Assembly: GCF_039921305.1 (NCBI RefSeq)
Contig: NZ_JBDSCA010000061.1
Coordinates: 11,153-75,152 of the forward strand
DNA from: Mucilaginibacter sp.
Lineage (GTDB): Bacteria; Bacteroidota; Bacteroidia; Sphingobacteriales; Sphingobacteriaceae
Direction of reading: 5' to 3'
Length of the DNA: 64,000 nucleotides
The first letter of the stretch is position 1. The number at the start of each line of letters is the position of its first letter. The translations under genes and the position numbers were made by a program. This document shows positions 57,375 to 62,679 of the stretch, in pieces. Below the pieces are notes generated by a model. It saw nothing but the letters and a program-made list of their open reading frames with translations, did no database searches and was not told the DNA's origin.

Positions 57375-58809
57375 TAATCTTTATCCCAAACACATCCTTC
57401 AAAGCCCGCTTTGCCGAGTAATACCCGCACATGCCATGCACACCACCACCTGGTGGGGTCGACGATGAGCAGATATACAAACCCTTTGCCGAAGTACGGT
57501 AAGGCGAGCTTCGCAATACCGGCCGGGTAAACAACTGGCCAATATCAATCACGCCTCCATTAATATCACCACCAACATAATTAGGGTTATATTCTTCTAT
57601 CTGCTCAGTATTCATCGTATGGCGCGCCAATATCCTATCTTTAAAGCCGGGCGCGAAACGCTCAACCTGCTGCTCAATAATTGCCGTCATATCTTTGGTT
57701 GAACCATTCGGAACGTGGCAATATCCCCACACAGCCTGCTTCCCTTCGGGTGCCCGGCTACTATCAAACAAGCCTTGCTGGGCCAGCAGCACATAAGGCT
57801 TTTCGCTATGCTGTCCTTTCCATACCTCTTTTTCAGATAGTGCTATCTCCTCAAAACTGCCGCCTATATGTACCGTTCCGGCTTGCGAACATTCGGGTGC
57901 AGTAAATGGCACATTACCATCAATGGCCCAATCTACTTTAAAAACACCCATACCATAGCGGTAACGCTCCAGTTGCCATTTATAAAGCGGGCTCAATTTA
58001 TAACCTGCAATTTGCAGTAACTGCTTAGGGGTAACATCAAACAGTACCGCATGTGCCGATGGTAGCTGATCTAAACGTTTCACATAAAAACCAGTCTCTA
58101 TCTTACCACCTATCGAAGCAAAATATCCTGCCAAAGCATCTGCAATTGAGCTCGAACCACCTTTCGGGATAGGCCAGCCATACAAGTGCCCTGCCGACAT
58201 TAATACCAAACCAATAGCAGCCGTAGCAATATTCGACAACGGCTGAATAGCATGTGCTGCCATCCCGCCAAACAAAGCCTGGGCCTCCGCGGTTTTAAAG
58301 TGTTTAGCCAAAGTAGCAGCAGGCTTTAACCCCTGCAAACCAAACTGAGCCATAGCTATAGGGTGTTTCGGATAATGCAAGGGCCCTAAAACATCTGCGG
58401 CAATTAACGGCCAATTTTTAACAACCGGCTCCATCAAATCCAGGTAATTCTGCCTGTCGGCACCCAGTAATTCGGCCGTTCCGGTTAGTGATCTTTTCAA
58501 TACTACCGCGGTACCATTATCTAACGGATGCGCCACGGGCAAATCTGGCTGTATAAATTCCAATCCAAATTGAGCCAAAGGCAAAGTCTTAAAAAATGGC
58601 GAACCAACTGCCAGTGGGTGTATCGCCGAACAAACATCATGCACAAAGCCCGGCAACGTTAACTCTGCCGATCGCAAACCGCCACCAATCGAACCCTTGC
58701 CCTCCACCAGCAAAACCGATAAGCCCGATTGTTGCATAGCAATAGCAGCCGCAAGCCCATTAGGCCCAGAGCCAACCACTATAGCATCATAATCGCGCTT
58801 GTCCAACAT
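57364..58809 (-). CDS. Phytoene desaturase family FAD-dependent oxidoreductase
   Basis: IVVGSGPNGLAAA, IGGG.RS.ELTLPGFVHDVCSAIHP, YICSSSTPPGGGVHGMCG. Confidence 0.9.
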   Translation of the reverse strand: MLDKRDYDAIVVGSGPNGLAAAIAMQQSGLSVLLVEGKGSIGGGLRSAELTLPGFVHDVCSAIHPLAVGSPFFKTLPLAQFGLEFIQPDLPVAHPLDNGTAVVLKRSLTGTAELLGADRQNYLDLMEPVVKNWPLIAADVLGPLHYPKHPIAMAQFGLQGLKPAATLAKHFKTAEAQALFGGMAAHAIQPLSNIATAAIGLVLMSAGHLYGWPIPKGGSSSIADALAGYFASIGGKIETGFYVKRLDQLPSAHAVLFDVTPKQLLQIAGYKLSPLYKWQLERYRYGMGVFKVDWAIDGNVPFTAPECSQAGTVHIGGSFEEIALSEKEVWKGQHSEKPYVLLAQQGLFDSSRAPEGKQAVWGYCHVPNGSTKDMTAIIEQQVERFAPGFKDRILARHTMNTEQIEEYNPNYVGGDINGGVIDIGQLFTRPVLRSSPYRTSAKGLYICSSSTPPGGGVHGMCGYYSAKRALKDVFGIKISPL

Positions 58810-58815
58810 TTAGAT

Positions 58816-59012
58816 TTGGGTATTGAGATGGGAGTTTTAAGGCAATAACTTTAATAACAAGACTAACAAATTATGGGTATTTATGGGTATGCTTAATTAC
58901 AAATTATGGGTATTTTTCCTTGTTTTTTTGATACTCAATTATCAAATCCGCAACAAATCCATCAATAGTAACTGTAATTACCTCAATAATTTAAATAACA
59001 AAATATGGGTAT
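58816..59012. repeat. Five TGGGTAT copies upstream of the desaturase-family gene
   Basis: TTATGGGTAT in tandem at 58871-58890, again at 58904-58913, variants near 58816 and 59004. Confidence 0.6.
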
Positions 59013-59280
59013 AAAGGTTGTAAACTATTTGTGCAATATTGATCAACATCCTATCGCCCATTCGGGCGTCACACCTGAATACAAACAGTTTCAGCGTCCA
59101 CGCTTACGTGTGCATTTGGATCCGATAAACTATTGTTACTATTTAGGTTTCAAAGCATTGCGCTTAGTTCTAATACAAAAATACGAAAAATCAACGGCAT
59201 AGTCAGTACAGCATTTCAATGCTGGCAAATTAAACGCCATCAAAAAAACTCATTTGTTATCCAAAATTTTAGGGAATCCT

Positions 59281-59345
59281 GCCCCGGCGGGGCTACATAT
59301 TTGTAGAAAACAAAAGTAATTAGCTTTGTGCCTCGTAGAGGCTAC
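59281..59345. repeat. REP pair of a third family
   Basis: GCCCCGGCGGGGCTACATATTTGTAGAAA and GCCTCGTAGAGGCTAC short palindromes. Confidence 0.6.
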
Positions 59346-59371
59346 CCTTCCGGGGAGCTAAGCCCCCACAA

Positions 59372-59402
59372 AAAAAGCCCCACAATAAATTGCGAGGCTT
59401 TT
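59372..59402 (-). terminator. Probable terminator after lipoprotein A
   Basis: AAAAGCC..GGCTTTT imperfect stem with an A-tract on the plus strand. Confidence 0.55.
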
Positions 59403-59423
59403 CCTTTTCTAAAAAAAATAGAA

Positions 59424-59633
59424 TTACATTTTTTTAGCTACTGAGTCTTTTTTAACTACAGTGTCAGCTTTAGAAATTGAAGTGTCTTTTTTAGCTGTTG
59501 TGTCAGCAGCCATTTTAGCTGAATCTGCTTTTGCAGCTGAATCAGCAGCAGAAGTTTTTTTCGGACCACCGCAAGAAGCGAATGCTACTGCTACTACTAA
59601 CGCTAATGCGCTTAATTTGATAGAGTTTTTCAT
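59424..59633 (-). CDS. Small lipoprotein A (69 aa)
   Basis: MKNSIKLSALALVVAVAFAS-C21; mature part with DSA, DSA, DTT, DTV, DSV. Confidence 0.88.
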   Translation of the reverse strand: MKNSIKLSALALVVAVAFASCGGPKKTSAADSAAKADSAKMAADTTAKKDTSISKADTVVKKDSVAKKM

Positions 59634-59666
59634 GTTAGTTTTTTAAAAGTGATTAATAGTTTAGGC

Positions 59667-59695
59667 TTAATACCTAAAACGAAAAAAGGTAACCC
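59667..59695 (-). promoter_or_regulatory. ECF-type promoter GGGTTACC-N14-GTATTAA (gene A)
   Basis: Plus strand TTAATAC 59667-59673 and GGTAACCC 59688-59695. Confidence 0.8.
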
Positions 59696-59752
59696 AATTA
59701 TTTTGAAAAAAATAATTAAGCTACCCTTTTGTTATTAATTACTTAATAAAAA

Positions 59753-59962
59753 TTACTTTTTAGTGGTGCTATCAACAGTAGTAGTTGTTGTAGTTGTTGT
59801 AGCAGTGCTATCTTTCTTAGCAGCTGTATCAACTTTAGCAGTTGAATCTACAGTTGTAGTTTTAGTTGAATCTACAGTGCTGGTTGATTTGTTACCACCA
59901 CAAGCAACAACTGATAATGACAATACTAATGCTAAAGCGCCTAATTTGAATGAATTTTTCAT
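59753..59962 (-). CDS. Small lipoprotein B (69 aa)
   Basis: MKNSFKLGALALVLSLSVVA-C21; DST x4, DTA, poly-Thr. Confidence 0.88.
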   Translation of the reverse strand: MKNSFKLGALALVLSLSVVACGGNKSTSTVDSTKTTTVDSTAKVDTAAKKDSTATTTTTTTTVDSTTKK

Positions 59963-59987
59963 GTTTGAAGTTTTTATTATTTTAAGC

Positions 59988-60016
59988 TTAATACTAGCTT
60001 ATAAAGAAGGTAACCC
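59988..60016 (-). promoter_or_regulatory. ECF-type promoter GGGTTACC-N14-GTATTAA (gene B)
   Basis: TTAATAC 59988-59994, GGTAACCC 60009-60016. Confidence 0.8.
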
Positions 60017-60055
60017 TAAAAATTAAAATTAATTTCAGGGTTACGCTTCATCAAA

Positions 60056-60277
60056 TTACATTTTTTTAGTCTCTGTCTTTTTAGTTTCAGTTGTAACTGT
60101 AGTATCCTTTTGTACTGGAGCAGTAACAGATGTATCTTTCTTAACTGTATCAGTTACAATTGTAGATGAATCAGTTTTGGTTGTATCAGAACCTGTAGAA
60201 GTTTTGTTACCACCACAAGCAACAACTGATAATGATAATACTAAAGCTAAGGCACCTAATTTGAATGAGTTTTTCAT
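60056..60277 (-). CDS. Small lipoprotein C (73 aa)
   Basis: First 25 aa identical to B; DTT, DTV, DTT. Confidence 0.88.
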   Translation of the reverse strand: MKNSFKLGALALVLSLSVVACGGNKTSTGSDTTKTDSSTIVTDTVKKDTSVTAPVQKDTTVTTETKKTETKKM

Positions 60278-60300
60278 GATTTAATGTTTTTAATTTTAAC

Positions 60301-60329
60301 TTAATACAGATAACTTGAAAAGGTAACCC
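60301..60329 (-). promoter_or_regulatory. ECF-type promoter GGGTTACC-N14-GTATTAA (gene C)
   Basis: TTAATAC 60301-60307, GGTAACCC 60322-60329. Confidence 0.8.
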
Positions 60330-60375
60330 AATTATTTTAAAGAAAATATAAATCGTATCAGGATATTATATTTTA

Positions 60376-60648
60376 TTACTGCTTAGTAACTTTCTTTGTT
60401 GTAGTGGTAGTCTTCTTCTTTTCAACTTTGTTAGATACCGTATCAATAGGTTGCTTTAAACTTTTGTTTGATACCGTGTCAATAGGTTGCTTTAAGCTCT
60501 TGTTTGATACCGTGTCAAAAGGTTGCTTTAAACTCTTGTTTGATACTGTATCCTTACCTTGTTCTGTTGATTTTCCTTTTGGATCACAAGCTACAATGCT
60601 TGATGCTATTACCAAACCTAAAGCGGCTAATTTAAATGAATTTTTCAT
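60376..60648 (-). CDS. Small lipoprotein D (90 aa) with a 12-aa tandem repeat
   Basis: MKNSFKLAALGLVIASSIVA-C21; (DTVSNKSLKQPF/I) x3 plus DTVSNK. Confidence 0.88.
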   Translation of the reverse strand: MKNSFKLAALGLVIASSIVACDPKGKSTEQGKDTVSNKSLKQPFDTVSNKSLKQPIDTVSNKSLKQPIDTVSNKVEKKKTTTTTKKVTKQ

Positions 60649-60674
60649 GATGGGTTTTTTGGTTTAATTTACCC

Positions 60675-60703
60675 TTAATACCTTATTATGAATAAGGTAA
60701 CCC
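60675..60703 (-). promoter_or_regulatory. ECF-type promoter GGGTTACC-N14-GTATTAA (gene D)
   Basis: TTAATAC 60675-60681, GGTAACCC 60696-60703. Confidence 0.8.
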
Positions 60704-60899
60704 TATACATTATGCACTATATTTCGACTATCATAAGCATCTGCTCTTAATGTTTAAAAAATAGCTGACAACTATTCAGCATGTTAAATAATTAAACACG
60801 GCCATTGGTATAAATAAGTGCTTTGGTAAGCATATTTGCACTATTTTTGATTTTGTGACAATGCACCAACACCCCATCAAACTTATTTATATAATTGTT

Positions 60900-60928
60900 G
60901 GGTTACCATTTGAAAATAAACGTATTAA
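60900..60928 (+). promoter_or_regulatory. Same promoter motif in front of the sigma gene (autoregulation)
   Basis: GGGTTACC 60900-60907, GTATTAA 60922-60928, spacer 14. Confidence 0.8.
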
Positions 60929-60931
60929 GTA

Positions 60932-61501
60932 GTGAATAATAATGTGAACAATCCGGCACCGGCAGATAACGAAGCTATTTTAGGCATCCTGAATAACTCG
61001 GAGGCCATGCTTAAACGGATTTATTTAGCATACTTCCCCATGGTACTCCAACTGGTTATCACCAATAATGGTAACGAAGACGATGCCAAGGACATTTACC
61101 AGGAAGCTATTATCGTTCTTTATAATAAGGTTAGGGCAGGCAATTTTGAACTAAGCAGCAAGCTTAAAACATTTATCTACTCTGTTTGTCGAAGGTTATG
61201 GCTCAAAAGGTTAACCCAACTGAGCCGTTACGGTGGCGACATTCACGACCTGCAGGAGTATTTACCCGTAGAAGAAGATATAGCCAACCACGAAGAGAAA
61301 GATATACAGTTCAACAAAATGACTGGTGCATTAGGTTTGTTAGGCGAACCCTGCAAAACCATTATTGAAGACTTTTATATAAACGACAGATCGATGCAGG
61401 AGATCTGCGAAAAATTTGGCTATACCAATGCGGATAATGCCAAAACACAAAAATACAAATGCCTGCAACGCTTAAAGAAACTATTCTTTCAGCAAAAATA
61501 A
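60932..61501 (+). CDS. ECF sigma-70 factor
   Basis: Region 2 DAKDIYQEAIIVLY..LKTFIYSVCRRLWLKRL; region 4 LGEPCKTIIEDFY..SMQEICEKFGYTNADNAKTQKYKCLQRLKK. Confidence 0.92.
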   Translation: MNNNVNNPAPADNEAILGILNNSEAMLKRIYLAYFPMVLQLVITNNGNEDDAKDIYQEAIIVLYNKVRAGNFELSSKLKTFIYSVCRRLWLKRLTQLSRYGGDIHDLQEYLPVEEDIANHEEKDIQFNKMTGALGLLGEPCKTIIEDFYINDRSMQEICEKFGYTNADNAKTQKYKCLQRLKKLFFQQK

Positions 61502-61514
61502 AAGGAGTAAAAAG

Positions 61515-62618
61515 ATGAGTGATATTGAATTAATGGCAGTAGTTGAACGGTACCTTAACGGCGAAATGAATGCCGATGAGCGTATCCGCTTTGAAATGCT
61601 TCGCCGCGAAAACGCCGAGGTTGATAATACAGTTAAAGAACACCAGGAATTTACCGGCCGCCTAAAACAATATGGCGAACGCCTGGCGTTCGAAAACTTA
61701 TTGAACGATATCCATAACGAAATTGATGTTCAGGCCCTGAAAGATGAGTTTGTACATCACCCATCATTAATAGTTCGTTTATGGAGAAACCACCACTCAA
61801 AAATATCTGTAGCGGCATCAATTACCATTTTCGCGGTTTTAGGTACTTTATTCCTTACGGGATATTTGAAAAGCCAGAAACAAGAGAATGATGTAATTTA
61901 CCTTAAGCACGAAATTGCCCAGGTTAAGCATAAAAACGATGTGATATCGCAGTCTATTAATACCTTAAATATACGGCCAAAACAAATGGCGCCATCAAAC
62001 TATCATGGCACCGGAACAGGTTTCGCTATATCTTCCGACGGTTACCTGGCAACTAATTTCCACGTAATAAACGGAGCCGATTCTGTATACATCCAAAACG
62101 CTGATGGTACTGCCTATCACGCCAAAATTGTATCTACCGATCCGGCAAATGATATCGCTATCCTAAAAATAACCGACCCATCTTTCAAATCATTTGGTGC
62201 ATTACCTTATGGGTTCAAAAGAAGTAAGTCAGATTTAGGCGAAGATGTATATACTTACGGTTACTCAAAAGATGATGGTTTTTATTCAAAAGGCTATATA
62301 AGTTCCGGTAATGGCTTTAAAGGTGATACCGTAAAATATCAACTCAGCATGGATGTTGACTTTGGTAACAGTGGTGGTCCGTTGTTAGATGCTAAAGGCA
62401 ATGTAATAGCCATTATAAGCAGTAAACAAGCCCATACCGATGGCGCCTTCGCTATCAAATCAAAATATTTATATAAAGCCATTCAGGCCATTGCTCCCGA
62501 TTCGTTAAGATCAGACAAAATTGTACTAAGCTCTAAAAGCAAGTTTGCCAACCTGGGCCGTACACAGCAATTGAATAAATTACAGAATTACGTATTCATG
62601 GTAAAGGTTTACAATTAA
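61515..62618 (+). CDS. Anti-sigma-like N-terminus + TM helix + trypsin-like (S1C) serine protease, no PDZ
   Basis: VERYLNGEM..ER..FE, TM ISVAASITIFAVLGTLFLTGYL, intact triad ATNFHV / NDIAIL / GNSGGP. Confidence 0.88.
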   Translation: MSDIELMAVVERYLNGEMNADERIRFEMLRRENAEVDNTVKEHQEFTGRLKQYGERLAFENLLNDIHNEIDVQALKDEFVHHPSLIVRLWRNHHSKISVAASITIFAVLGTLFLTGYLKSQKQENDVIYLKHEIAQVKHKNDVISQSINTLNIRPKQMAPSNYHGTGTGFAISSDGYLATNFHVINGADSVYIQNADGTAYHAKIVSTDPANDIAILKITDPSFKSFGALPYGFKRSKSDLGEDVYTYGYSKDDGFYSKGYISSGNGFKGDTVKYQLSMDVDFGNSGGPLLDAKGNVIAIISSKQAHTDGAFAIKSKYLYKAIQAIAPDSLRSDKIVLSSKSKFANLGRTQQLNKLQNYVFMVKVYN

Positions 62619-62637: not shown

Positions 62638-62679
62638 AAACCAAAAAGGGATAGCAATTGTGCTATCCCTTTTTGGTTT
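62638..62679 (+). terminator. Intrinsic terminator of the sigma-protease operon
   Basis: 19-bp stem AAACCAAAAAGGGATAGCA / TGCTATCCCTTTTTGGTTT. Confidence 0.85.

Follow-up and report, generated by a model that had tools for sequence, protein, structure and literature searches.

The locus examined here raises the question of which form of RNA polymerase, if any, reads a two-box motif that is repeated five times between positions 59667 and 60928 of a 64,000-nt stretch of a Mucilaginibacter genome. The whole stretch that was analysed, called the window below, lies on contig C61 of an assembly of 82 contigs (5.66 Mb, 41.6% G+C). The motif, GGGTTACC-N14-GTATTAA, stands before four genes of very small lipoproteins and before the gene of a sigma factor of the extracytoplasmic function (ECF) type, which is followed by the gene of a putative anti-sigma factor. 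From the comparative data described below, we consider it highly probable that all five copies are promoters read by RNA polymerase carrying the adjacent ECF sigma factor, which would be autoregulated and would control a very small envelope regulon.

An exact pattern search of the window returns five matches, the same five copies, on the same strands, that an earlier note on this DNA had listed by eye, and no sixth. None of 100 dinucleotide-preserving shuffles of the window yields a match, and none is expected by chance. Four copies are on the minus strand, at 59667..59695 (P1), 59988..60016 (P2), 60301..60329 (P3) and 60675..60703 (P4), and end 33, 25, 23 and 26 nt upstream of the start codons of lipoprotein genes 1 to 4, respectively. 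The fifth copy, at 60900..60928 on the plus strand (P-sigma), is the putative autoregulatory promoter of the sigma/anti-sigma operon; between its second box and the GTG codon at 60932 that starts the sigma open reading frame (ORF) there are 3 nt. P4 and P-sigma are arranged back to back, and this divergent layout is kept in relatives. Every copy is oriented like its downstream gene, and the distances from the lipoprotein genes fall in the range of 23–33 nt given earlier. Both boxes are 100% identical in the five copies, while the pairwise identity is 41% for the 14-nt spacers and 48–50% for the 20-nt flanks, so the description of invariant boxes at a fixed distance with a variable sequence between them is accurate.

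A scan of the genome and its relatives, which the earlier note had suggested, was also performed. In all 82 contigs, the exact motif occurs only as the five window copies. One further copy matches at 14 of 15 box positions, with the first base relaxed: AGGTTACC-N14-GTATTAA, in an intergenic region of contig C39 of the same genome (G000, C39:6208-6236, minus strand), 20 nt before an ORF for a 114-aa multi-pass membrane protein. With up to one mismatch allowed per box, the genome scan found nothing convincing besides the five copies and the C39 site.

In the proposed mechanism, GGGTTAC(C) and the T-rich stretch after it would be the -35 element and GTATTAA, 14–15 nt further, the -10 element, and an A/T-rich tract 10–20 nt upstream of the first box may act in the manner of an UP element. 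One copy would drive the sigma/anti-sigma operon, giving positive autoregulation, four copies would each drive one tiny lipoprotein gene, and the sixth, near-perfect copy on C39 would drive the small membrane protein. In the resting state the downstream protein would presumably use its N-terminal domain to keep the sigma factor at the inner membrane. The periplasmic HtrA-like protease domain of the same protein could have a role in sensing the inducing signal, or in the cleavage that releases sigma. Once freed, the sigma factor would amplify its own operon and switch on the mini-lipoproteins.

Conservation of the motif with the sigma operon

For an unbiased view of the upstream regions, 30 loci were gathered by homology to the sigma protein and not by the motif. 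GGGTTAC-N15-GTATTAA is found directly upstream of the orthologous sigma gene in each of the 30 loci. One to four further copies per locus, typically GGGTTACCTTTT-N10-GTATTAA, precede neighbouring small, mostly divergent lipoprotein genes. When 200 nt surrounding the sigma start of these loci are aligned with MAFFT, both boxes are conserved at no less than 90% per column, and the DNA further upstream is unalignable except for a T-rich tract 10–20 nt before the first box. As judged from this alignment, the boxes are kept by selection and are not a leftover of gene duplication. The earlier note had already argued against mere duplication, and the combination of invariant boxes with diverged or unalignable surroundings bears it out.

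A pattern search of the genus (36 relatives and the source genome, 37 in total) identified about 121 sites in 34 of the 37 genomes, compared with about five for the reversed control pattern; related genomes hold two to six copies each. In 24 genomes of other families the same search came back empty. Three genomes of the genus lack a site, and in precisely these three the sigma orthologue is either missing or truncated by a contig end. The motif is present in 34/34 genus genomes with a full-length sigma gene vs. 0/27 genomes without an orthologue, these genomes being related and not independent samples.

On a larger scale, a phylum sample of 401 genomes was searched for homologues of the anti-sigma-protease. 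Full-length homologues occur in 31 genomes, which belong to the family of the source organism (four genera) and to two further families of its class; for the majority of the remaining families of the class, this sample contains no homologue of the sigma operon. Exact copies of the motif are present in 28 of the 31 genomes with the operon, mostly at that locus, and the three exceptions have one-base variants there. Among the 370 genomes without the operon, eight have an exact copy, in each case a lone N16 hit, a level that the control pattern reaches too. The gap between GGGTTAC and GTATTAA is fixed at 15 nt, occasionally 16 nt. The named distant loci with the motif come from metagenome-assembled genomes (MAGs) of Chitinophagaceae/Chitinophagales and from a Sphingobacterium MAG. 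Their anti-sigma partner is only 32–48% identical (32–36% in the Chitinophagaceae MAG and the Sphingobacterium MAG), and they still carry GGGTTAC-N15/16-GTATTAA both before the sigma gene and before a divergent lipoprotein gene.

In two loci the same variant of the second box is seen in both promoters, GAATTAA twice in L101 (genome G122) and GCATTAA twice in L112 (G094). These shared variants hint at co-evolution of the sigma factor and its promoters. A relaxed search for GGTTAC-N15/16-GNATTAA in five variant-box genomes gave background-level counts and did not extend this hint.

The same data bear on a rival reading in which the promoters belong to another alternative sigma factor, with its gene at a different place in the genome, and the adjacent sigma gene is merely one of its targets. 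A first look at the genome yields 27 sigma-like candidates, among them one paralogue of 30% identity on contig C72, which leaves space for such a regulator. Against it, the motif tracks this particular sigma/anti-sigma-protease operon across the genus, the family and the order, and it is always located immediately upstream of this sigma gene, so that a separate regulator would have to co-occur equally strictly. We therefore regard control by another sigma factor as unlikely. The presence of the motif at all 30 sigma loci and its co-occurrence with the operon instead favour the earlier proposal that it is the recognition sequence of the adjacent sigma factor.

Two side observations concern the sigma promoter itself. 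Its spacer, A[AT]TTTCGCATAAAT, is far better conserved among Mucilaginibacter (L007-L066) than the spacers of the lipoprotein promoters, and possibly contains a site for a second regulator. A second motif in the same orientation is found 67–125 nt upstream of the sigma promoter in L086-L088 (genus g27) and in L004, L009, L020, L021, L027, L043 and L056; such tandem promoters would add a leadered sigma transcript to the proximal one.

A directional two-box motif with fixed spacing, a copy before the operon of the sigma factor itself, strict co-occurrence, an upstream A/T-rich tract and envelope targets together have the features predicted for an autoregulated ECF promoter. Several points weigh against this assignment. 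The dependence on sigma and the transcript start are deduced from sequence comparison. Textbook ECF promoters have AAC in the -35 element and CGT in the -10 element, with 16–17 bp between them. The boxes here, GGGTTAC and (N)GTATTAA, lack both signatures, and the spacing is about 2 bp shorter than in promoters of the sigma-W type, although the overall arrangement, with a T run behind the -35-like box and GTAT within the -10-like box, is similar. The sigma factor itself is placed only at the level of the ECF type. Relatedness among the genomes makes the co-occurrence statistics look more independent than they are. Finally, with TATTAA at -12 to -7, as in canonical geometry, the transcript would start past the GTG codon of the sigma gene, and the model has to assume either a leaderless start or an unusually short discriminator.

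Two other promoter types were considered. A generic sigma-70 promoter scan gave fewer sites than in shuffled sequence. A sigma-54 geometry (GG at -24, GC at -12) was ruled out by inspection, as there is no conserved GC element.

Start of the sigma transcript and terminator-like hairpins

When about 50 Sphingobacteriaceae loci are compared, a single in-frame start codon of the sigma gene proves to be conserved, a GTG located 2–3 nt after GTATTAA (window positions 60929-60934). The nine codons that follow keep their length (the sole insertion is of 3 nt) and vary at wobble positions, and one of the nine keeps a hydrophobic residue (L/I/V/M) by means of five different codons. Retained length, wobble variation and a retained hydrophobic position indicate that this GTG is the true sigma start. 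We also note that GTG, and not ATG, is retained as the sigma start across families (loci L001-L066 and L083-L112).

With 3 nt separating the second box from the start codon, a leader of normal length cannot be accommodated. In many species the divergent intergenic region is only about 130 nt long, which leaves no room for another sigma promoter. Given the position of the GTG and this lack of room, the sigma mRNA is probably leaderless in most Sphingobacteriaceae, or else the discriminator is unusually short. The gap from GTATTAA to GTG is 10–13 nt in Chitinophagaceae-like loci and 15–17 nt in four Mucilaginibacter species. A transcript start 3–4 nt after the box would be a self-consistent alternative to the canonical geometry, and it would also fit the leaders implied by these longer gaps. 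We know of no characterised ECF promoter with a -10 element that spans about -10 to -4. Leaderless mRNAs make up 5.5% of mRNAs in Flavobacterium psychrophilum (PMC9723704).

The sigma gene has one candidate promoter of another kind. TTTG-N16-TATTTTTG, at 60822-60849 on the plus strand and about 80 nt upstream of the gene, resembles a housekeeping -33/-7 promoter and could give basal sigma expression; this lone match does not exceed chance frequency (1.2 TAnnTTTG per kb). The housekeeping promoter of Bacteroidota has TTTG at -33 and TAnnTTTG at -7. The motif had been described as different from this promoter, and in agreement with that no sense-strand TAnnTTTG is present upstream of any of the four lipoprotein genes.

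A normal sigma leader of about 15 nt, with no need for leaderless translation, would result if the transcript started in the spacer and GTATTAA were transcribed, GGGTTACCTTTT being a modified Bacteroidota -7 box (TAnnTTT). The similarity of TACCTTTT to TAnnTTTG speaks for this arrangement. In another version, the motif would be an operator bound by a DNA-binding regulator; it contains the short palindrome GGTNACC, and GGTTACC is its own reverse complement save for the central base. Both versions are opposed by the strictly directional, bipartite form of the element, with its fixed 15-nt gap to a non-palindromic second box. They also give no reason why GTATTAA should be invariant when its distance from the start codon ranges from 2 to 38 nt, and in the sigma-type copies, TACAATTT or TACCATTT, the final G that is conserved in the housekeeping box is missing. 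We consider both the operator and the modified -7 box very unlikely.

The first box has a second peculiarity, as at two junctions of the lipoprotein array it is part of a predicted hairpin. After lipoprotein gene 3, the hairpin at 60002..60053 (minus strand) has the GGGTTACC box of P2 as its 3' arm, followed by UUCUUUAU; its predicted RNA folding energy is -20.7 kcal/mol (z = -6.6), and none of 200 shuffles is as stable. After lipoprotein gene 2, a hairpin of 22 pairs at 59683..59730 (minus strand) contains the GGGTTACC box of P1 in its 3' arm, and the T run after the box, UUUUUUCGUUUU, provides the U tract; this hairpin is matched by a terminator scan and folds at -23.7 kcal/mol (z = -7.4). 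Both are predicted to be stable stem-loops directly followed by a U run and located downstream of a stop codon, as is typical of intrinsic terminators. The same palindrome, AAAAGGTAACC-loop-GGGTTACCTTTT, is seen ahead of lipoprotein promoters in about 20 further species (L002, L004, L008, L021, L024, L028, L056 and others), where the median folding energy is -18 kcal/mol. RNA folding found no hairpin partner for P3, P4 or P-sigma, which suggests that the terminator arm is a secondary use of the box and not the reason for its existence.

These hairpins bear on the explanation that the repeats are passive products of tandem duplication of the lipoprotein genes, or mainly terminator arms, without a shared regulator. 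The four lipoprotein genes are indeed tandem paralogues, and the placement of the first box in stable hairpins with U runs, recurring in other species, would suit this scenario. It does not account for spacers and flanks that have diverged to 41–50% identity around 15 of 15 identical box positions, for the copies without a hairpin partner, or for the GTATTAA box, which has no terminator role. Copies also stand before the unrelated sigma gene and before unrelated membrane-protein genes on other contigs, and box conservation extends to families whose anti-sigma partner shares only 32–40% identity. Passive duplication or a terminator function is already largely excluded by these observations, and we give it hardly any weight.

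Returning to promoters of the adjacent sigma factor, a more specific model may be formulated. In most Sphingobacteriaceae the sigma mRNA would be leaderless and GUG-initiated, with its 5' end 3–4 nt past GTATTAA and the -10-like element at about -10 to -4, and the -35 box and T run would have been co-opted as terminator arm and U tract, producing compact, insulating terminator-promoter cassettes. We put this combined model forward tentatively, with a little less than even confidence.

Genes of the locus and predicted regulon

The sigma gene (60932..61501, plus strand, GTG start) encodes a 189-aa protein with Pfam Sigma70_r2 and with a match of 61 bits to NCBIfam TIGR02937 (sigma70-ECF) over residues 28-183. 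It is a small sigma-70-family protein of the ECF (group 4) type, with regions 2 and 4 only. It scores below the cut-offs of every specific NCBIfam sigma subfamily, and no relative of solved structure was found by sequence at E <= 1e-3. Within the genus, 33 other genomes have orthologues of 72–82% identity; the source organism has M. rivuli and M. gracilis as its closest named relatives. Public databases contain about 7,400 homologues (E <= 1e-10), with generic names only.

After a gap of 13 nt follows the gene of a 367-aa protein (61515..62618, plus strand) with Pfam Trypsin_2 at residues 167-300 (2.7e-25). Three helices at its N-terminus make up a cytoplasmic domain, one long transmembrane/coiled helix follows, and the C-terminal part is a serine protease domain of the HtrA/DegS type that lacks PDZ. 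The closest solved relatives of the protease domain are MucD, DegP, AlgW and DegS, and the catalytic residues His183, Asp213 and Ser286 are invariant in 22 homologues. The AlphaFold model has a mean predicted local distance difference test score (pLDDT) of 77, with helices at residues 3-14, 20-32, 34-69 and 85-150, and the N-terminal three-helix domain is modelled at pLDDT of about 80–87. By its position and architecture, this protein is a putative anti-sigma factor. Downstream of the gene, a perfect 17-bp inverted repeat followed by T residues (62640..62677, plus strand), noticed by reading and not folded, is probably the operon terminator.

The four tandem lipoprotein genes on the minus strand are taken from the ORF list. 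Lipoprotein 4 (60376..60648, 90 aa), lipoprotein 3 (60056..60277, 73 aa), lipoprotein 2 (59753..59962, 69 aa) and lipoprotein 1 (59424..59633, 69 aa), the last gene of the array, all have an MKNS[FI]KL signal peptide followed by Cys21, and mature parts rich in Thr, Ser, Asp and Lys. The mature mini-lipoproteins (49–70 aa; genes at 59424-60648) each contain three to five D-[ST]-[AILVMT] motifs, which we take to be the O-glycosylation sequon of Bacteroidota. Lipoprotein 4 has four D-[ST]-x sequons and three to four 12-aa repeats, DTVSNKSLKQP[FI]. The array is closed by an intrinsic-terminator-like hairpin with a U run (59370..59405, minus strand; -21.7 kcal/mol, z = -3.6).

Assignment of the lipoproteins to the PG1828 family (NCBIfam NF050142) was considered and rejected. 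The best scores are 35.8 and 31.6 bits against a curated cut-off of 50 bits, and half of the unrelated control genomes (7 of 14) also give hits to the model, which thus responds to a signal peptide plus low-complexity sequence. A link through PG1828 to SigH of P. gingivalis was dropped together with this non-specific, sub-threshold match.

Some other sequence features were noted in the vicinity. Words similar to AAATTATGGGTAT occur four times in the intergenic region after the gene at 58809 (58860-59015), and GC-rich palindromes resembling repetitive extragenic palindromic (REP) elements lie just past the lipoprotein array (59270-59370). An Rfam scan of 58700-61100 gave sub-threshold chance matches only.

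Among all loci collected, 108 of the 140 non-sigma sites precede small lipoproteins, and the distance to the start codon peaks at 32–38 nt. Away from the sigma locus, 15 of 16 sites in relatives are intergenic. These sites precede small multi-pass membrane proteins of 94–114 aa (including the orthologue of the C39 gene), small lipoproteins and a DUF2459 protein. Judged by these targets, the regulon appears to be tiny and envelope-directed. A conserved orphan copy, GGGTTACTTTTTAACA..GGTATTAA, has no convincing downstream ORF in L067 (G024:C25) and L071 (G019:C1); it possibly serves a small RNA or a very small ORF.

The motif provides an uncharacterised lineage of ECF sigma factors with a recognition sequence that is precise and testable. 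This lineage is widespread among Bacteroidota of soil and rhizosphere (Sphingobacteriaceae and Chitinophagaceae-like families). It is so specific, with two to six sites per genome, that the predicted regulon can be read directly from any genome. This regulon is unusual in its content of tiny lipoproteins rich in O-glycosylation-type sites and of small membrane proteins. The switch is ordinary in kind, being an autoregulated ECF system, yet it stands out as unusually clean, is conserved widely among soil Bacteroidota and seems not to have been studied. Genetic tools for Bacteroidota are scarce, and the promoter could serve as an orthogonal, tightly controlled expression part. Shine-Dalgarno sequences are not used in this phylum, and the juxtaposition of promoter and start codon is a natural test case for leaderless GUG translation. 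The value of the system lies in the clean motif, its deep conservation, the compact and unusual regulon, and the predicted leaderless and terminator-overlap features.

Comparison with known systems

Among the closest known promoters of this kind are rpoE P2 of the Escherichia coli sigma-E factor (GGAACTT-N16-TCAAA) and the sigma-W promoters of Bacillus subtilis (TGAAAC-N16-CGTATA). The candidate promoters resemble them in having a bipartite, near-invariant motif with fixed spacing, a copy before the sigma/anti-sigma operon and a small envelope-related regulon. They differ in the -35 box, which is GGGTTAC and not GGAAC or TGAAAC, in a spacer about 2 bp shorter, and in a second box that abuts the sigma start codon. 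In layout they also resemble Bacillus sigma-W-type promoters, with AC at the end of the -35-like box, CTTTT directly behind it, and GTAT within the -10-like box; the sequences themselves differ.

Prediction of autoregulatory motifs for ECF sigma factors is established practice, and bulk surveys have reported such motifs for thousands of them (PMC7776599, PMC7826278). Searchable full text, which does not extend to the supplementary motif tables of these two surveys, contains no description of the motif, and a query with GGGTTAC and ECF sigma matched unrelated primers only. The motif may already be catalogued in the survey tables. The main text of the ECF reclassification paper does not mention a trypsin-linked Bacteroidetes group. 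No published start-site data were found for this sigma system. The start-site atlas of Flavobacterium psychrophilum lists no GGGTTAC promoter in the supplement searched; its ECF motif SM6 is a different one, of the CGT type, linked to genes of type IX secretion (T9SS).

The candidate promoters share with the Bacteroidota housekeeping promoter the same organisms and an A/T-rich context, and differ from it in sequence. A leaderless sigma mRNA would put the end of the second box at about -4, near the span of -12 to -5 reported for the housekeeping -7 box (PMC9723704).

The closest pathways by components are sigma-E/RseA/DegS/RseP of E. coli and AlgU/MucA/AlgW of Pseudomonas aeruginosa, which likewise combine an ECF sigma factor, a single-pass membrane anti-sigma factor (putative in our case) and a periplasmic protease of the HtrA family. 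Unlike in these pathways, the putative anti-sigma factor carries the protease domain, which lacks PDZ, on its own polypeptide, and the predicted regulon consists of a few mini-lipoproteins in place of porin-assembly and chaperone genes.

Within the phylum, EcfO/Das1 (ECF21)-Reo/Dma1-NigD of the gut Bacteroidales Bacteroides fragilis, B. thetaiotaomicron and Phocaeicola vulgatus is a Bacteroidota-specific pair that controls its own operon and a few paralogous lipoproteins and is induced by envelope stress (PMC13114119, PMC10927553). Identity with EcfO/Reo (ECF21) was ruled out by the different anti-sigma architecture (367 aa, single-pass, Trypsin_2) and by the different lipoprotein family: the lipoproteins described here are low-complexity peptides of 69–90 aa and match none of the NigD families in Pfam. 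As a sigma/anti-sigma pair driving a few paralogous lipoproteins, EcfO-Reo-NigD is nevertheless the closest functional analogue in the phylum of the system proposed here.

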